Assembly: GCA_963737905.1 (NCBI GenBank) | Contig: CAVTUQ010000002.1 | Location: 1-64,000, forward strand | DNA length: 64,000 nucleotides | Direction: 5' to 3' | Source: an uncultured delta proteobacterium | Lineage (GTDB): Bacteria; Desulfobacterota; Binatia; UBA9968 | In this document: one piece after another, positions 3,373 through 38,721 of the stretch | How positions within the stretch are numbered: the stretch's first letter is position 1 | How the letters are laid out: every line of letters starts with the position of its first letter | Program-made: the position numbers and the translations under genes | Notes under the pieces: generated by a model | Databases searched by the model: none | What the model saw: only the letters and a program-made list of their open reading frames with translations | Told to the model about the DNA's origin: nothing

Positions 3373-4356
3373 TCACTTTCTATCACGGATGCGGCCGTCT
3401 TGTAAAGCTTGCCGGCCAGTTACACTTGCCATGAGGCCAAGAGTCGCCCGCAGGCCTTCTTCTAGACACACCGTGGGCGTCCAATTGGCCGCCTGGCAAA
3501 ACATGGAGTTATCACACACCCAGTCGGGATGCCTGATCTCCCGCACTTTCCCTGGGGTAAACATGGGTGCATATCCTATTACCGATGCGGCGATTTGATT
3601 AAGTTTCGCGGCGACATTCATGGGCAGCTCGGACACGTGGAAACGAAACGCCGGTTTTCCGCGAAGCCGCTCCAACGTTTCCGCGACCTCGCACCAACTA
3701 TATCCCCCTGGGTGTCCATCATCCAACTCGAACACGCGGCTCTCTCGGTTCTCGCTGACCAGCCATTTTATCACCGCCTCCGCCAGGTCTTCGACATAGA
3801 GCAGAGAGAACCTGGCGTCATTTCGGCCCAGCAACGGGGCGATCCCGCGCCCCATAAGCCGGAACAAGGGAAGCATCGCGCGGTCCCCAGGGCCATAGAC
3901 AGCTGGCGGACGAAGCACGGTCCACGCAAAGCCGCCAGCCATTTGGGATAGAGCGATCTCCCCCATCCGCTTGCTGGCCGCATAGGCCGACAAATTTGGT
4001 TCGCGAGCCGCCAAAGATGAAATTAAAAGGAACCGGGGAGCGGGGCTCCTGATCGCGGCAATTTGCGCCAGCCGTAACACCGCCTCAACATTCACAGGGT
4101 AAAAATCGGCGTCGGTGATGCCGCGCACCGCCCCTGCGCAGTGGACCACGGCATCCGCATCGCCCACCAGGCTGTCGAGGCGCTCAATATCTTCGAGGGT
4201 GCCGTGAACCCACTGAATCGAGATTCCCTCTAGGCGCGCCCGCCGCAACGGCGCGCGAATGAGCGCGCGTACGCACCACCCTTCTTTTACGAGTTTTCGA
4301 GCTATCGCGCTCCCGATGAATCCCGTCGCCCCCGTCAACGCGATGACGCCGCGCAT
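3373..4356 (-). CDS. NAD(P)-dependent epimerase/dehydratase family reductase (CerR-like)
   Basis: TGATGFIG Rossmann motif, YAASK catalytic motif, LRPPAVYGP; likely start MRGVIAL at 4356. Confidence 0.85.
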   Translation of the reverse strand: MRGVIALTGATGFIGSAIARKLVKEGWCVRALIRAPLRRARLEGISIQWVHGTLEDIERLDSLVGDADAVVHCAGAVRGITDADFYPVNVEAVLRLAQIAAIRSPAPRFLLISSLAAREPNLSAYAASKRMGEIALSQMAGGFAWTVLRPPAVYGPGDRAMLPLFRLMGRGIAPLLGRNDARFSLLYVEDLAEAVIKWLVSENRESRVFELDDGHPGGYSWCEVAETLERLRGKPAFRFHVSELPMNVAAKLNQIAASVIGYAPMFTPGKVREIRHPDWVCDNSMFCQAANWTPTVCLEEGLRATLGLMASVTGRQALQDGRIRDRK

Positions 4357-6197
4357 GGATTTGATTTTTCCGGCCGAGCCTCGGTGGACGCGCTTCGCTT
4401 GACCCATTTCCGTTGCAGAATAGCCGGACCATGCCAGCTCAGAAATTCTTCCCGTGCCCTTGAACGGGAGAGCTTTCCGGAGGACGTACGCGGCAGGGTG
4501 TGCGGAGGAACGATCTCAATGAAACAGTCCAGCCCGAAGCGCTCGTGGATCAGCCCCTGCAAGCGATGGACAAATTCTCCTTGCCTGGTAGAACTCCCCT
4601 CACGCCACTGCACGACCATGGCCGCCATTTCAATCCCATTAGGGTTTAGAACTGAAAAGGCGCACGCCTCGCCCGTTCTTACCTCGGGCAATTCCTCAGC
4701 GACATGCTCCAAATCTTGAGCCCAGATTTTTCGGCCATTGATAATGATGACATCTTTCTTGCGGCCAATGATCACAACCCGACCTTCGGCGAGATAGCCA
4801 ATGTCTTGGGTGTCAAACCATCCGTCCGAGGACAAGACCTCACGAGTTTTCTCGGCATTGTCGAAGTACCCGGACATAATATTGGCGCCTCGCAAAAAAA
4901 TTACGCCGGCGTGGCGATCCGGCAGAACTGTGCCTTGCTCGTCACGAATTTCGACTTGAATTCCCGGCAGAGGGACGCCGCAAATTACAAACGGCCTGGT
5001 ATTCGATATTTCCCCTTCTAAGCCTGGGTCACGCCCATTCAGGGCCAAAGCTATTCCACGCTCGGATAACACAGCCGGGTTAACTCGATCAACGGTAATG
5101 CCTTGCTGGAGGGGTGCGAAACTTACGGCGAGGGAGGCCTCTGCCATTCCGTAGCAGGCCGTAAATGCACTTGGTTTAAACCCGCTTGGCTCCAGAACTT
5201 CGGCAAACTCCGCCAAGGCGCCTGACTGGATCGTTTCGGCCCCTACTCCGGCGACCCGCCACGCGCCGAGATCGAAAGTGCTGACGACATCCCGCCTGAG
5301 ACGCTTCACGCACAATTGATAACCGAAAGACGGGCTAAAGGAAATGGTGGCTTTGGTGCGTGTCATCAAGGACAACCACAACAGTGGTCGCATGGCAAAC
5401 ATCCAGGTTTTTAGATAATCCACGGAGACCTGCGACACCATCGGCCCGAGCACGAATCCCACAAGCCCCATATCGTGATAAAAAGGCAGCCAGGAGAGGG
5501 CGCGGTCGCCGGGGCGGAGTTTGAGACCATGAATTGTGATTTCATTCAGATTGGCGAGGACAGCCTTTTGGGTAATCATTACTCCCCGGGGAAATAGCGT
5601 GCTTCCGGAAGTGTATTGAAGATAGGCGACCTCATGCGGCTCCGACGGACGCAGACTCTCTTGGGAGTCAGGCAGTCGCTCGAAGGCTTCCAGCGTCCCG
5701 ACATGGGGAATATTCAACTCCTTGGCAGCCTCGGCCATAAAGGGATAGAACTCAGACGGCGCCATCGCCACGGACGCTCGGCAAACGCGCAAAAGCGCCT
5801 TGAGTTGCGCGACATAAGCCTGTCGGGCACTCATGAAGGCCGACGCCGAAAACGGCACCGGCACGAGACCGGCATACTGGCAAGCGAAAAACATGCGGTG
5901 GAAATCTGGATCCGTCTCTGCAACGATTGCTACTCGAGCGCCCCGGTCGAGTCTTAAGCTCAAAAGCTTTCGTGCCAAGGATACTGCCTGCTCTCGAAGA
6001 TCCGCATATGACAGGACGGCGCACAAATCGCCCCGACTCCCATAGAAATTGCATCCGGTCTGTCCCAGGGCTGAGTAATCCAGGGCCTCGCATAGCGTGG
6101 AAAAATCAGCGGCCCGAAAAGCTACGGTGTTCTCAGTGGGGGTGGGTTCCAATTCAGTTCCGTGTTCACCACTTGTGCGCAATGCTACCTCCTTCAT
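4335..6197 (-). CDS. Fatty acyl-AMP ligase / acyl-ACP synthetase
   Basis: YLQYTSGST, SWLPFYHDMGL, YGMAEA, GRKKD, PRTSSGK adenylation motifs; start uncertain (ATG 6197 or TTG ~6152). Confidence 0.9.
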   Translation of the reverse strand: MKEVALRTSGEHGTELEPTPTENTVAFRAADFSTLCEALDYSALGQTGCNFYGSRGDLCAVLSYADLREQAVSLARKLLSLRLDRGARVAIVAETDPDFHRMFFACQYAGLVPVPFSASAFMSARQAYVAQLKALLRVCRASVAMAPSEFYPFMAEAAKELNIPHVGTLEAFERLPDSQESLRPSEPHEVAYLQYTSGSTLFPRGVMITQKAVLANLNEITIHGLKLRPGDRALSWLPFYHDMGLVGFVLGPMVSQVSVDYLKTWMFAMRPLLWLSLMTRTKATISFSPSFGYQLCVKRLRRDVVSTFDLGAWRVAGVGAETIQSGALAEFAEVLEPSGFKPSAFTACYGMAEASLAVSFAPLQQGITVDRVNPAVLSERGIALALNGRDPGLEGEISNTRPFVICGVPLPGIQVEIRDEQGTVLPDRHAGVIFLRGANIMSGYFDNAEKTREVLSSDGWFDTQDIGYLAEGRVVIIGRKKDVIIINGRKIWAQDLEHVAEELPEVRTGEACAFSVLNPNGIEMAAMVVQWREGSSTRQGEFVHRLQGLIHERFGLDCFIEIVPPHTLPRTSSGKLSRSRAREEFLSWHGPAILQRKWVKRSASTEARPEKSNPCAASSR

Positions 6198-6807
6198 CGG
6201 TTCGACCTTAAAGCGCGGAACATTAGCCCTCACCGAAAACTTAGGCTTTACGAACAACCTATTGATTTAACAAGCGTTTCTGATCAGGGTTATGATGGAA
6301 ACCGATAGCCGGTATTCGTTAATCCGAAATGTCGGGACCCCATACAACCCAATCAAGCTCGGCATTGATGAGCGAGTTCGTGGCTCTGTACCGGATCAGC
6401 TTCCATTGTTCCTTTACCGTTTGTGTGATGAGAGTCCATTAGCTGGTAGTAGTCGGGGTGACCAATTATCACTATCTTTAGCTTTAGCGAATCGAAGCTA
6501 AATCAACACTCGCCAAAGGAATGATTCCTTTGTCCATTATAGTACGATGGTGTCCCCTTATAGTACTACACGATGAGGTTAGTCAAAGAAAAAATATTCA
6601 TTTCCTTTTCTGGTTGATGAAAAACCCAATGTTTTACCGGGCGGCTCGGCTGGAGAGCGGTCGGGAGGCGCGCGAAAGGTTCCTTAGGGCGCCGCTCGCT
6701 CTGAATTCGAGCGAGCGGCGCCATCGGCTTGCATTGGCAGGCGGTATTCGGCTGTCAGACGGGCTGAGCCAGGATATTGCGAACACTTAGTGTACAAACA
6801 CGTGCCG

Positions 6808-7133
6808 AAGTTTATAGAGGTTGAGTACGACGGCAGGACGAGATTCCAGCGGAAACTCCGGAGCCGCATCTACCGCTATCGTTGGCTACAGCGGTTGCTC
6901 TACGCCCCTCTGGCGAGTAACGCGCATGTCGTCGATACGTTACACCTGATCTGGAGGATGAACCAGAAGAAAGCCACCGGGCGAAAGTCTTGGCTGGAAC
7001 AGTTGGCGCGGTGGAACACGATTAACACGCGCCCAGCCCGCTGGCTCCCGACGTCAAGCAGATGCTGCGAGACACGCTCGCGGAGGACGTGACCAAGCTC
7101 TCCAATCTGCTGCAGCGCGATCTGAGCCATTGA
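6808..7133 (+). pseudogene. C-terminal relic of a sulfotransferase-family gene
   Basis: ...YDGRTRF...RIYRYRWLQRLL...RWNT, then after a 1-nt frameshift near 7038 PLAPDVKQMLRDTLAEDVTKLSNLLQRDLSH*. This resembles the sulfotransferase C-terminal ...DV.KL..LL.RDLSHW with TGG>TGA. No N-terminal PAPS motif is present. Confidence 0.55.
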
Positions 7134-7203
7134 CTGACCGAGCCAGAGTGCTGTCTAGAGCGTTTGTCACTATCTGTATCTGATCACTTCAGGAATGGCT
7201 ACA

Positions 7204-7292
7204 GCGCCCCATTCGACTCGCGGTAAACCACCGCTCGCTCATGGCAGGCCACAACATTTCGTCTAAGACAAACATCGAGTCGAATGGTGCCC
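7204..7292. repeat. REP-like inverted repeat element
   Basis: Perfect 12-bp inverted repeat CCATTCGACTCG (7209-7220) / CGAGTCGAATGG (7277-7288) enclosing GCTCGCTCATGGCAGGC. Confidence 0.5.
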
Positions 7293-7540
7293 CGTGTGCT
7301 CTACTCGACGATTACCCCCCTCGCGTTTCGCCGTGAATCACTCTTTATTTCCGTCTGCATGACAAAGAACACCTCAAACTGGGTGTTCGTGGAAAGATGA
7401 ACAATACAGCTCTTTGCCATACCGACAGGTCTTGCTTCCCCGTTGGTTAAGTTCTAAGGGAAAGCAGGCATCGGCGTGCGCCTTGCCGTGTAACCATCTG
7501 GGCCTTTTTTGTCGCGCCAAAATTCAGGCGCGGAGAGGAC

Positions 7541-7915
7541 ATGTCTGCGAGGAAAATTTTAGTAGTCGATGATAATGATAACGTGAGGTCTTTTTTAGTT
7601 CTCTTACTGGAGCGGTCCGGTGGATACGAGATCTTGGTGGCCGCCACCGGAGAAGAGGCGGTGGAGAAAGCCATTTCTTGGAGACCCGATGTTATTCTCA
7701 TGGATATAGTCCTGCCTGGCATCAACGGTATAGATGCAACGAAGGCGATAAGAAACAATCCAAGCACGGCCCAAATTCCAATTATTGCTTTCTCTGCTTT
7801 GCCTTTAGGCGGATGGAAGGAGCAAGCGCTAAAGGCAGGGATTGTAGCGTACCTTCAGAAACCGATTAACTTAGAGGTACTGATGGAGACAATCCAAAAA
7901 TTCATCCCATCTTAA
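7541..7915 (+). CDS. Single-domain response regulator (CheY/DivK-like receiver)
   Basis: ILVVDD, PDVILMDIVLPGING, IPIIAFSA, YLQKP; RBS GGAGAGG upstream. Confidence 0.9.
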   Translation: MSARKILVVDDNDNVRSFLVLLLERSGGYEILVAATGEEAVEKAISWRPDVILMDIVLPGINGIDATKAIRNNPSTAQIPIIAFSALPLGGWKEQALKAGIVAYLQKPINLEVLMETIQKFIPS

Positions 7916-8069
7916 GCCACAGGCGCTGCAATGCCTCATTTGGGTAAGCCGAAATTCCCCCGAATGGGGATTGACGTCACTAGCACCGCGGCAGCTATAA
8001 CTGCGGGATAAAGGGTCTTTTTGTTGATTCGCTGCGATGGTCGATGACGTGAAGCACTTGCGGTTTAAA

Positions 8070-8288
8070 ATGAAACAAGTCTCGTATAAGGACTATGTAA
8101 TAACCGTCGCCAACACCAAAGAAAACAGAACTTGGCGATCCCATGTGACTATTACCTGGTACGGAGGAAAATTTGACCTGCATGATGAATTTTGTTTCAA
8201 AACTGAGATAGAATCCGAGGAACACGGCGTAGCATTGGGAAAGCATTGGGTGAACAATCGCATTCAGAGCATGCAACGCCTCCCATAG
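8070..8288 (+). CDS. Small hypothetical protein
   Basis: 72-aa ORF with a protein-like pattern (YKDYVI...F.TE.E.EE.G..LGK.WV); no family recognised with certainty. Confidence 0.55.
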   Translation: MKQVSYKDYVITVANTKENRTWRSHVTITWYGGKFDLHDEFCFKTEIESEEHGVALGKHWVNNRIQSMQRLP

Positions 8289-8577
8289 GCTAGCATTGAG
8301 TTGCGCCAGCTTTCAGTCGACGGCGACTGTTGCGTGTCATTGATGATCCAGTTTGTCCCACACTGCCCAGAAGGCAGTGAAAGAAATGAGGCGCGTCACA
8401 AAAGCGCCTGGAAGTGTCGCAACTTGTCTGTGAGACAGCAGTGGAGGCATGGAGCTAGGGGAAGATTCTGGAAGGCGTTCTTGCCTTTTGTTTTTGTTCA
8501 TGTAGCTTCGATTTGTTCTTGTTGTTTCATCAATCATCCTCGACCCCCCGACCCAGTACGAAGGGAGTCCGCGTCCA

Positions 8578-9333
8578 GTGCTTATCCGTGTGTTCTTACT
8601 TGTTCAACTCCTTGCCGTTCCGGCATTGCTTAATGCCACAACGATTGTAGCTGTAAGAACACCCACTGATATTTACTTAGGTGCCGACAGCAGAGTCACG
8701 GAGGTTCGTCCAGACGGACGCTTTTACTATGAAGCGAAATGTAAGATCGGACAAGTGGGTGAGATATTCTTTGCGGGTGCTGGACTGTATGGGCACCAAC
8801 CCACCGGCCTAAGCATTCGATCATCGTTGATCCAAGCGCAATCCTCCGCAGCGAGCCTATCTGAGACAGTTGAGAGATTCGAGACGCTTTATACAGACGC
8901 CCTAGAGAGAACGTTACGCTCCGCTCTGAAAGATAGCCCGATGGTGTACAAAAAATACTTTCTAAACGGACATGTTTACGTGTACCTTTTTGCGTTTGAG
9001 AATGGCATCACCCGATATTTCGAAAGAATCTTTACCATTCAAAGTTCTACCGATCCTGTGACAGTCGGCATTGAACGGCATGACTGCCCGCCAGGCTGTC
9101 TAGGCGGTGAAGCCACGATCCTTGGAATTGGTTATGCTGACGTAGTGAAGGAAGTATCACCCGATGTCTTAAAAACACGCCCGCCAGTTGAATTAATAAC
9201 GGAACTCGTTGATGCGAGCATAAAGGCCGACCCCGCCCATCAATCCGGCGGTCCGATAGACATTCTCCATTTGAACAAAGACGGCGGGAGATGGGTCCAG
9301 AAAAAAAAGGAATGTCCCGAAATCCAGTCCTAG
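8578..9333 (+). CDS. Exported Ntn-hydrolase / proteasome-beta (HslV)-fold protein
   Basis: 20-aa signal-peptide-like leader, then TTIVAVR...LGADSR...KI...FAGAG and C-terminal D....SGGPIDILHLNKDG; RBS GGGAG upstream of GTG. Confidence 0.7.
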   Translation: MLIRVFLLVQLLAVPALLNATTIVAVRTPTDIYLGADSRVTEVRPDGRFYYEAKCKIGQVGEIFFAGAGLYGHQPTGLSIRSSLIQAQSSAASLSETVERFETLYTDALERTLRSALKDSPMVYKKYFLNGHVYVYLFAFENGITRYFERIFTIQSSTDPVTVGIERHDCPPGCLGGEATILGIGYADVVKEVSPDVLKTRPPVELITELVDASIKADPAHQSGGPIDILHLNKDGGRWVQKKKECPEIQS

Positions 9334-9454
9334 AGAGCAATGAACATCGGCGAAATACCGATTTGAAAATCCTCTAAGGTACTCCTGTTGATTCCCGTTG
9401 TGATCGGGATAGTGATGTATTTCAAAATCCTCAACGTCTTTTGGAAGGTTCAAG

Positions 9455-9541
9455 TTATCGTCTGTTCAACCACACGTACAGCCAAAACAAGCCGATCACA
9501 ACAATGGCGACGATTAACATAGTTAGATCGGTGCTGTTCAT
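9455..9541 (-). CDS. Putative 28-aa single-TM membrane peptide
   Basis: Manual translation MNSTDLTMLIVAIVVIGLFWLYVWLNRR*: hydrophobic core with a basic C-terminus. Confidence 0.4.
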   Translation of the reverse strand: MNSTDLTMLIVAIVVIGLFWLYVWLNRR

Positions 9542-9690
9542 CTCAAAATATGCTAAGGGGTAGAGGCAGTCGTTTAAGGACTCACGCAAGTGTGTCTGCG
9601 GGTTAAACTTTTATCGCTCATTCGACTTAGGGAAATTGCCTTTTGTGCTGCTTGCCCGCTGAGTGAAGGATTGTCTCGCGAGACGCCAAG

Positions 9691-10161
9691 CTAATTCCTA
9701 GATTTGAGCGACCGCTCGACTTCGCGCTCGGCCATTTTTTTCCTGAGCGTTTCGCGCTTGTCATAAAGCTTCTTGCCCCGTGCCAGCCCCAGTTCAACCT
9801 TTGCCCTGCCGTTCTTGAAGTACAGTTTCAACGGAATGAGGGTCAGCCCGCGCTGTTTGGTCTTGCCGGCAAGCCGCTCGATTTCCCGCGCATGAAGAAG
9901 GAGCTTTCGTGCGCGGGTGGGCTCGTGGTTAAACTGATTGGCCCCCGGATAGGGACTCACGTGGGCGTTGACCAGAAAGGCTTCGCCCTTCTGAATGCGC
10001 GCATAACTGTCTTTGAGATTGGCCTTGCCGTCGCGGAGGGATTTAACCTCACTCCCTACGAGAACCAAGCCGGCTTCGTAGGTCTCGTCGATGAAGTAGT
10101 TGTGCCGCGCCTGCCGGTTAACGCAGACGATCTTCTCTCCGGCAGGCTTCTCCTTAGCCAT
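9691..10161 (-). CDS. smpB: SsrA-binding protein
   Basis: [38 protein letters not shown]. Confidence 0.97.
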
Positions 10162-37683: not shown

Positions 37684-37930
37684 TAAAAATTTCAACTTTT
37701 TCGCGGATTTTTGCGCCTATCGGCCGCGCTGAATTCAGTCAATATGTTGACAGTCTCCCCTGGTGATCTACTAGATATCGAATGATCAGTTTGATATCTC
37801 TTCGGATCACAAAAAAAGTCAAAGAATGACAAGAATACGTACAAACTGGACGACAAGACTCTTCGTCTGGCAGGCGTCAAGCCGAATAGCAGATCGAGAC
37901 AGAAGCGAGTAGATAACGATTGTGGGCTAA

Positions 37931-38286
37931 AGTGGATCGTAAGCCGGATTCTGTTCGCGGTTCCTAATAGGAACCCTAGCGATCATTCATCTTGCCCCAT
38001 GATTACTCATGGGGTCGAGCGACCTTACCCGAGGGTTATGGGCGGACCACCCAACCCTCCTATTTGGTCTTGCTCCGGGTGGGGTTTGCCAAGCGTCCAT
38101 CATCACTGATGGACCGGTGAGCTCTTACCTCGCCTTTTCAACCTTACCCATCAAAAATGACGGGCGGTGTGTTTTCTGTGGTACTTTCCCCCGATCACTC
38201 GGGGCCGTCGTTAGCGGCCACCTTGTCCTGCGGAGTCCGGACTTTCCTCCCTCTGCCCAGGGCGGAGGGCGATCGCTTGATCCACT
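37931..38286 (-). ncRNA. rnpB: RNase P RNA (type A)
   Basis: Minus strand GAGGAAAGTCCGGACTCC near the 5' end and ACAGAATCCGGCTTAC near the 3' end; P1 helix AGTGGATC/GATCCACT. Confidence 0.96.
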
Positions 38287-38721
38287 TTAGCCCAGTGAGG
38301 ATTTTCTGATTGCGTCGTCGATCCCTTGGTTAGCCAATCGATCCGCTAACCGGTTCAATTCCCGAGGCACATGAAGAATACGATAGGCCTCAAACTGACG
38401 CAATAATGTGACGGCTTTTTGAAAAAGCCTCTTCAGCTTTTCGTCCTTCACACGGTATTCACCGTTAAGCTGGCGCACCAGTAGTTGTGAATCACTCTGG
38501 ATCCGGACACTTTTTTTGCCGAGCTGAAGGAGCGCTTCGAGCCCCATGAGTAACCCTTCATATTCTGCGACATTGTTCGTGGTATATCCCAAGTAAGCGC
38601 TTAGCTCCTTCACCACTTTGCCGTGCCCGTCGAGAATCACGGCTCCACATCCTGCAGGTCCGGGATTGCCTCGGGCAGCGCCATCAACCATGAGAAGCCA
38701 TGCATTGTCTGGTCCCGACAT
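38287..38721 (-). CDS. rnhA: Ribonuclease HI (archaeal/actinobacterial-like type)
   Basis: VDGAARGNPGPAG, TNNVAEYEG, SDSQL, HVPRELNRLADRLAN. Confidence 0.92.
   Translation of the reverse strand: MSGPDNAWLLMVDGAARGNPGPAGCGAVILDGHGKVVKELSAYLGYTTNNVAEYEGLLMGLEALLQLGKKSVRIQSDSQLLVRQLNGEYRVKDEKLKRLFQKAVTLLRQFEAYRILHVPRELNRLADRLANQGIDDAIRKSSLG

Follow-up and report, generated by a model that had tools for sequence, protein, structure and literature searches.

A proteasome-like protein family with a signal-peptide-like leader before Thr1: candidate Thr1 hydrolases for export and unmasking by signal peptidase

To our knowledge, the characterised proteasome-type enzymes (20S proteasome, HslV, Anbu, the beta-proteobacterial proteasome homolog BPH, and connectase) are all cytoplasmic, and their catalytic Thr1 is freed by autolysis or by removal of Met. 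BPH apparently works without an ATPase (excerpted text of PMC5777263), and 22 new prokaryotic families of proteasome homologs were described by Fuchs, Alva and Lupas in 2021 (PMC8665760). The excerpted text of the latter paper confines propeptides to beta subunits and HslV and does not contain the words 'signal peptide', 'secret', 'periplasm' or 'disulfide'. Here we describe a gene, at positions 8578-9333 of a 64,000-nucleotide stretch of DNA from an uncultured delta proteobacterium of the Binatia (the window; contig CAVTUQ010000002.1 of assembly GCA_963737905.1, positions 1 to 64,000), which encodes a proteasome-like protein with a signal-peptide-like leader placed immediately before Thr1. 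We consider it likely that this protein is a Sec-exported Thr1 hydrolase of the N-terminal nucleophile (Ntn) type that is unmasked by signal peptidase I. An exported proteasome homolog was not described anywhere in the literature searched; the title of Coluccia and Besaury 2023 (Mol Genet Genomics 298:1135) includes 'secreted proteasome repertoire', and this study possibly covers peptidases that Acidobacteria secrete and may be relevant to the family.

The gene, its leader and the predicted fold of the mature protein

The precursor starts MLIRVFLLVQLLAVPALLNA, a leader that abuts the sequence TTIVAVR, and then continues TTIVAVRTPTDIYLGADSR. The frame is open for 275 residues and is closed 24 codons upstream, with no in-frame start further upstream of the GTG, so the window holds no longer form of the gene; nor is there an alternative start between the leader and Thr1. 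The ratio of nonsynonymous to synonymous substitution rates (dN/dS) against the ortholog of a congener (L001) is 0.32 over 251 codons, which indicates that the gene is real. The features of the gene are as follows, with residues numbered from Thr1 (precursor Thr21) and conservation given for the 142 aligned relatives described below.

8578-9333, forward strand: open reading frame (ORF) of the putative exported proteasome-like precursor, 251 codons, GTG start, TAG stop
8469-8490, forward strand: terminator-like hairpin and T-run upstream of the gene, from a terminator scan
8560-8567, forward strand: Shine-Dalgarno-like GAAGGGAG, ending 10 nt before the GTG (found by eye, with no chance test)
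8578-8637, forward strand: signal-peptide-like leader of 20 codons, with Arg4 in the n-region, the h-region VFLLVQLLAV, Pro at -6 and Ala at -1
8638-8640, forward strand: codon of Thr1, the proposed N-terminal nucleophile (Thr in 130/142, Ser in 10/142)
8686-8688, forward strand: codon of Asp17 in the GADSR motif (142/142), aligned with Asp17 of BPH and beta2
8740-8745, forward strand: codons of Cys35 and Lys36 (Cys 139/142, Lys 142/142), Lys36 being the Lys33 equivalent and aligned with Lys33
8782-8784, forward strand: codon of Gly49 in FAGAG (130/142), the equivalent of Gly47 of the oxyanion hole, aligned with the AGAG/LAG glycine of beta2 and BPH
9085-9099, forward strand: loop C150-P-P-G-C154 (C150 in 123/142, C154 in 121/142)
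9313-9315, forward strand: codon of Cys226 in the C-terminal tail (138/142), proposed as the disulfide partner of Cys35

The hairpin suggests that the gene is a separate transcription unit; it is weak evidence, as six terminator-like sites were found where 2.7 are expected. A promoter scan gave one site against 2.3 expected by chance and is uninformative.

The leader is of the n-h-c type and ends ...PALLNA, with a single Arg in the n-region, an h-region of about 10-12 residues, Pro at -6, Leu at -3 and Ala at -1; in relatives position -3 is Gly, Val, Ala or Ile. Read by rule and not with a trained predictor, it has the tripartite build and the -1/-3 pattern of a Sec leader cut by signal peptidase I, together with no Cys at +1 and no Arg pair. 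A lipoprotein was ruled out by the lack of Cys at +1 and a Tat substrate by the lack of twin arginine. At about 10 residues, the h-region is too short to serve as an anchor in the membrane. The Peripla_BP_6 protein of the window carries a leader built in the same way (...IFSILLPATAWA then QKG). In the AlphaFold2 model of the full-length protein, residues 1-20 form a loose helix outside the fold with a predicted local distance difference test (pLDDT) value of 47-49 for the block, and the fold starts at residue 23.

The protein belongs to a large family without a name. A word-indexed search returned 35 close homologs at an expect value (E) <=1e-3, all 'hypothetical protein' and none with a Pfam domain, and an exhaustive search of 1.84 billion representatives returned 1048 at E<=1e-3, of which 279 reach E<=1e-10 and six reach E<=1e-30. 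The cluster names looked up for 10 family members all read 'hypothetical protein', and the ESM Atlas gave unnamed clusters only, with Acidobacteriota commonest among the few labelled members. Pfam assigned no family to the window protein, its best match lying at chance level (E 0.15), and NCBIfam gave no match; PADLOC gave none for five family members, and PHROGs gave a single weak match to 'peptidase HslV family' (E 0.0025).

In 19 close homologs (40-85% identity) A20, T21, T22, C55, K56, C170, C174 and C246, in precursor numbering, are invariant. For the wider family we used an alignment of 142 rows, composed of the mature window protein, five proteins from the word-indexed search and 136 of the 150 relatives listed by the exhaustive search. 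The remaining 14 (P0035, P0050, P0061, P0084, P0086, P0090, P0094, P0103, P0104, P0116, P0148, P0161, P0169 and P0178) are fragments or matches starting after residue 21, which are not scorable at position 1, and were left out. Position 1 is Thr in 130 rows, Ser in 10, Gly in one and Met in one. Asp17 and Lys36 are present in all 142, Ser18 in 139 and Gly49 in 130, and G165 (134), P206 (138) and W219 (140) are similarly kept. Judged from these sequences, the conservation of the catalytic residues and of the cysteines is far beyond chance. The expectation of the original prediction that homologs would keep Thr1, the Asp17 of LGADSR and the Lys of CKI is borne out by the family, and the glycine of FAGAG is largely kept as well. 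The same prediction had placed the reading GIG at the GSG (Ser129) position of beta subunits and matched an Asp and a following segment to Asp166/Ser169. Both are present in the window protein, as G163-I164-G165 and as D198....S203-G-G-PIDILHL, but neither serine equivalent is kept across the family: S203, the proposed Ser169 equivalent in 'SGG', is Ser in 17/142 rows and Val in 108/142. The helpers Ser129, Asp166 and Ser169 are not universal in the wider proteasome family.

The mature protein has four cysteines, at positions 35, 150, 154 and 226, as the original prediction had counted, and they are conserved in 121 to 139 of the relatives. The domain thus has four conserved Cys in 231 residues, where the genome's cytoplasmic HslV has a single Cys. 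In a hand count of the Cys patterns 17 rows lack both C150 and C154 and six lack just one of the two, a joint loss that fits a C150-C154 disulfide. C35, which neighbours the catalytic Lys, and C226 are kept in nearly all rows and could pair in a second one, both pairings being putative.

The AlphaFold2 model of the mature chain, built with the 142-row alignment, has a mean pLDDT of 95.1 and a predicted template modelling score of 0.90, with 211 residues at or above 90, 20 at 70-90 and none below 70. The order of strands and helices in the model fits a beta-subunit-like sandwich. A Foldseek search of the Protein Data Bank (PDB) gave 500 or more matches at E<=1e-3. The 48 PDB matches listed all belong to 20S proteasome entries; their E values range from 5.1e-9 to 3.4e-7, and the probability is 1.00. 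In the viral set BFVD, 29 matches were found at E<=1e-3, the named ones being proteasome-beta or HslV-like phage proteins. Another Ntn family was considered for the fold and rejected, none occurring among the listed PDB matches. The predicted fold is therefore of the proteasome-beta Ntn type that had been proposed from the letters of the gene, related to the known structures and clearly diverged from them. An oligomer prediction for four mature chains with the same alignment, run without controls, scored 0.00 against a mark of 0.42 and speaks neither for nor against rings.

Sequence comparison reaches the same family from a distance. In a single-sequence search of the PDB, T21 onward aligned to residues 1-61 of BPH (5ovu) at E 0.93. 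The profile of the 142 relatives reached 5ovu at E 2.3e-4, then beta2 and beta6 subunits and HslV, with 58 of the 60 listed PDB sequences being proteasome, HslV or BPH chains and with Thr1, Asp17, Lys33 and the Gly47 of the AG motif in register in the alignment columns. Against the genome's own HslV, hhalign gave E 5e-4 over 51 columns in the same Thr1 register; against an Anbu-like paralog the value was insignificant (E 0.16). PF00227, the proteasome family of Pfam, was matched at E<=0.1 by 51 of the 142 members (best 1.4e-5), and 15 other Pfam families were matched by one member each. These links, weak as they are, all point one way. Because the PF00227 threshold failed and the Ser129 and Ser169 helpers are lacking, we file the family as a new divergent family of the proteasome-like group and not as a member of any named one.

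The features described above can be combined into a mechanism. The pre-protein would be exported by the Sec pathway and cut by signal peptidase I at A20|T21, which would make Thr1 of the proteasome-beta/HslV-type Ntn fold the new N-terminus. The hydroxyl of Thr1 would then serve as nucleophile and its free alpha-amino group as base relay, acting with Lys36 and Asp17, while the backbone of Gly49 would supply the oxyanion hole. Peptide amide bonds would be hydrolysed, or possibly transferred, in the periplasm or outside the cell with neither ATP nor an unfoldase, and disulfides Cys35-Cys226 and Cys150-Cys154 would probably stabilise the exported fold.

An exported protein of this fold need not be a general peptidase. 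It could be a connectase-like, sequence-specific transpeptidase or ligase, an amidase of small molecules (an acyl-homoserine lactone, a lipopeptide or a cell-wall amide) or a binder with no catalytic role. The missing Ser129 and Ser169 equivalents are compatible with such roles, and connectase shows that the fold can ligate (excerpted texts of PMC7980362 and PMC8665760). The distribution of the gene is also that of a sporadic, horizontally moved accessory function. Copies turned up in 5 of 41 related genomes, in 4 of 401 from the window's phylum and in 8 of 301 from the phylum of a Pyrinomonadaceae genome that carries the gene; each count includes the starting genome and is a lower bound, with six to eight candidates scored per genome. 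The copies of the Thermodesulfobacteriota and the Pyrinomonadaceae genome share about 70% identity. The presence of Thr or Ser at position 1 in 140/142 relatives, and of D17 and K36 in all, argues against a binder; no connectase chain occurs among the 48 listed Foldseek matches, and no partner or substrate gene is conserved alongside. A function other than general peptide hydrolysis is unlikely.

The leader and residue -1 across the family

To score the leader we defined an h-region as an uncharged 7-mer before Thr1 with a mean Kyte-Doolittle hydropathy >=2.0. Such a segment precedes Thr1 in 125 of the 142 relatives, and with A20 and T21 invariant in 19/19 close homologs, a hydrophobic leader like the one that the original prediction saw before TTIVAVR recurs in most of the family. 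The window protein itself falls in a well-supported clade of 11 rows, all with Ala at -1.

The residue at -1 varies with the distance between the h-region and Thr1, a relation that is the most informative result obtained for the family. Where this distance is at most 8 residues (n=91), 54 members have Ala at -1, 14 have Gln and 11 have Gly; at 9-12 residues (n=23) 15 members have Gly there, and above 12 residues (n=11) nine do, so that Gly accounts for 24 of the 34 members with a distance of at least 9. Gly at -1 occurs in 46/142 relatives altogether. A Gly at -1 before Thr1 is a hallmark of self-cleaving beta subunits, and the HslV of this genome reads ...MIHG then TTILAIR. An h-region is present in 35 Gly-1 members. 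In 28 of these a small-x-small site lies upstream, and a cut there would leave 3-10 residues as a propeptide; 11 of the 35 have His at -2. The family thus seems, from these sequence patterns, to use two routes: a cut by signal peptidase alone (Ala-1, the case of the window protein), or a signal peptidase cut after which a short Gly-1 propeptide is removed by autolysis. A FastTree phylogeny built from the mature sequences requires at least 45 changes of the -1 class, against a mean of 63.1 for shuffled labels, and none of 200 shuffles was as low. The repeated change indicates that evolution keeps Thr as residue 1 and swaps the means, which would fit selection for a free Thr1 and not for one type of leader.

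Gln stands directly before Thr1 in 16/142 members, after an Ala-x-Ala-like site. These members recall by analogy the Q-rule of Bacteroidetes, under which signal peptidase exposes Gln (excerpted texts of PMC5837995 and PMC10653852), and would need a further cut to free Thr1. If they are Bacteroidota proteins under that rule, the product would have a Gln-Thr end with one residue to remove, or a pyroglutamate block.

Several loci of close relatives carry a conserved, helical-looking stretch of about 60 codons, ending ...SEAIKSHAA, which runs in frame into the start Met (L028 at about 3620-3900, L038 at 1565-1830 and L002 at 5878-6060). The same upstream DNA is out of frame or degraded in most other loci, is absent in the window and matches no Pfam family. 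It may be what is left of a small gene that lay upstream, or of an N-terminal domain since lost.

These two observations, the Gly-1 class and the in-frame extensions, are also what would be expected if the hydrophobic segment were a signal anchor or a propeptide, and if the same fold and chemistry cut Ala20-Thr21 autocatalytically, as beta subunits cut Gly-1/Thr1, to free the domain from the membrane. Self-cleavage does seem to exist in the family, as Gly-1 in 46/142 and in 24/34 members with the longer spacer indicates, and extensions of about 60 residues at L028, L038 and L002 would make the hydrophobic segment internal. An h-region of about 10-12 residues is, however, short for an anchor, and Pro at -6 with Ala at -1 makes a standard c-region; the frame in the window is closed without any extension, and the upstream stretch is disrupted in most loci. 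For the window protein we therefore regard autocatalytic release as improbable. That the protein is simply one more cytoplasmic proteasome homolog, its hydrophobic N-terminus being a propeptide or a miscalled start, is very improbable: 17/142 relatives have short leaders without an h-region and described proteasome homologs are treated as cytoplasmic ('signal peptide', 'secret' and 'periplasm' being absent from the excerpted text of PMC8665760), but the h-region is kept in 125/142, four Cys are conserved, no alternative start lies between leader and Thr1, and truncation is likely for the 17 rows without an h-region, as 11 of them have Gly at -1, as in the propeptide class, and the one looked up lies on a short contig.

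Several observations weigh against the preferred reading of a Sec-exported Thr1 hydrolase unmasked by signal peptidase I. The window protein reaches no Pfam or NCBIfam threshold and does not match PF00227 even at E<=10, all sequence links to the proteasome family are weak (best E 2e-4), and the structural matches are distant, with Foldseek TM scores of 0.41-0.57 and a large root mean square deviation for the listed PDB matches. The equivalents of Ser129 and Ser169 are not conserved, the residue after G165 being variable. Leu at -3 is allowed but not optimal under the -3/-1 rule, and the predicted cleavage site is read from that rule. The 17 relatives without an h-region, which have very short leaders and still contain the Cys, are either truncated gene calls or truly cytoplasmic; truncated calls are likely, and P0058, the sole row of this kind among 10 looked up, comes from a contig of about 1 kb. 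Expression is hinted at by two short contigs from RNA libraries, 224 nt at 8643-8865 and 233 nt at 9231-9463; such libraries can hold DNA, and stretches of the gene that these runs leave uncovered carry no meaning. Finally, the genomic context offers no functional clue, as no neighbour is conserved beyond groups of kin among the 56 loci compared. Taken with the leader, the conserved residues and the predicted fold, these points leave export and unmasking by signal peptidase I the likely course for the window protein. We are somewhat more hesitant than convinced about the broader proposal that the family is the first extracytoplasmic branch of the proteasome family, a widespread and sporadic set of periplasmic or secreted Thr1 hydrolases that use neither ATP nor an unfoldase and in which the making of Thr1 was swapped repeatedly between Gly-1 autolysis and signal peptidase I.

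Genomic setting and distribution

The gene lies at the right end of a region that differs in composition from its surroundings.

6600-9690, no strand assigned: variable islet of lower GC content, holding a response regulator gene (7541-7915), an ORF of 83 aa (8037-8288) and the proteasome-like gene

The GC content is 0.48-0.52 over about 6000-9500 and 0.55-0.60 in the flanks. Congeners retain window positions 4402-6509 (93% identity) and 9690 onward (71-86%), while the middle is scattered and not kept as one piece, in agreement with the accessory islet described in the original prediction. A congener's copy of the gene (80% DNA identity) lies on another contig, with an ABC_sub_bind gene upstream and a RecN-like gene downstream, and in the Pyrinomonadaceae genome a relative of 68% identity sits beside a Mutator-type transposase and an HxlR regulator. 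Contigs of a freshwater metagenome closely match 8395-8479 and 9087-9333 and diverge before 8395 and right after the stop at 9333. The segment of about 8395-9333 may, as these data hint, move as a unit.

The 83-aa ORF (forward strand) belongs to no Pfam family; two congeners have its DNA at 83-85% identity, and one of these carries it about 3 kb upstream of the proteasome-like gene, on a shared contig. The left part of the islet, 6257-7541 (about 1.3 kb), has only short ORFs and lowered GC, and the two ORFs scanned there gave no Pfam match.

Among the 17 ORFs scanned in window positions 2-20084 no AAA+ unfoldase, HslU or other, was found, so the earlier statement that no such partner lies nearby holds for this stretch. 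The Pfam families found there are an ABC transporter, an aminotransferase, an epimerase, an AMP-binding enzyme, a response regulator, SmpB, DUF502, PanC, PanB, dNK, GH3, GCS2, the IF-2B family, Peripla_BP_6 and Ddl. Elsewhere in the window, bacterial RNase P RNA class A is encoded at 37925-38288 on the reverse strand (303 bits), and a search of the 64 kb for tRNA and tmRNA genes returned none, though SmpB is encoded at 9691-10161.

For the wider family, 518 ORFs of at least 90 aa from 56 related loci were clustered and Pfam was run on the neighbours. ABC_sub_bind recurs at 10 loci and HxlR at seven, and a group with an HhH-GPD glycosylase and a group with lipoyl-synthase and GNAT recur at few. 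They were rejected as functional partners, each recurring within one group of related loci only, and are read as synteny of kin or insertion history. In a single case, in a genome of the Acidobacteriota phylum, a homolog's neighbour (L075 901-1476, reverse strand) matches Peptidase_C70, a papain-like cysteine protease, at E 2.5e-6.

The genome encodes a canonical HslV (contig C2, 213867-214376) and two Anbu-like genes, whose products start MTFCLGIK (contig C7, 273590-274111, L011; contig C17, 40375-40836, L012), so the protein described here is an extra, fourth proteasome-type gene product. A 307-aa ORF beside the canonical HslV looked recombinase-like by eye, and the Anbu-like genes lie near transglutaminase-like and Alpha-E genes.

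Significance and comparison with known systems

If the preferred reading of export and signal peptidase cleavage is true, proteasome chemistry would operate in the periplasm or in the surroundings of the cell, both of which lack ATP. With signal peptidase as activator, the enzyme would be switched on by its passage through the membrane, a simple safeguard against activity in the cytoplasm; if rings also form, the result would be a self-compartmentalising protease outside the cytoplasm. The family offers a natural experiment on Ntn maturation, with Ala-1 for the direct route, Gly-1 for the propeptide route and Gln-1 in 16/142, and it could give disulfide-stabilised, cofactor-free peptidases or ligases of practical use. 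The family has about a thousand clusters at 50% identity and no Pfam model, so that many genes would gain an annotation from a single biochemical study.

The 22 families of PMC8665760 resemble this one, as far as the excerpted text describes them, in being divergent, in their Thr/Ser1-Asp17-Lys33-Gly47 core, in having no conserved context and in having no AAA+ partner; the comparison is by description only, and the present family may be one of them. BPH (PDB 5ovu/5ovs) is the best sequence match in the PDB and aligns Thr1 to Thr1. Its chain begins at Thr1 and has no leader, whereas the protein described here is preceded by one, and E 2.3e-4 over about 50 residues does not establish membership. 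Anbu, present in two copies in the same genome, is likewise proteasome-like but has no leader and is reached only at a profile E of 0.16. HslV (ClpQ) shares the fold, the Thr1 register and the character of a single-gene bacterial Thr1 hydrolase; it lacks the leader and the Cys of the protein described here, which has no HslU nearby and shares its genome with a canonical HslV encoded elsewhere. The 20S beta subunits (PF00227), which we take to be MEROPS T1, give the best structural matches and share the predicted Ntn fold, Thr1, the Asp17 of GADSR and the equivalents of Lys33 and Gly47. The protein described here differs from them in its Sec-type leader, in place of a cytoplasmic propeptide, and in its four conserved Cys; its positions for Ser129 and Ser169 are not conserved, and it has neither an alpha-subunit partner nor a match to PF00227.

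Periplasmic Ntn hydrolases of other families, such as penicillin G acylase and gamma-glutamyltranspeptidase, are known, and in the Gram-negative penicillin V acylases removal of the signal peptide exposes Cys1, an example of signal peptidase creating the nucleophile. These enzymes, none of which occurs among the listed Foldseek matches, use a different nucleophile or internal autoprocessing. A periplasmic Ntn enzyme is therefore no novelty in principle, whereas one from the proteasome family would be.

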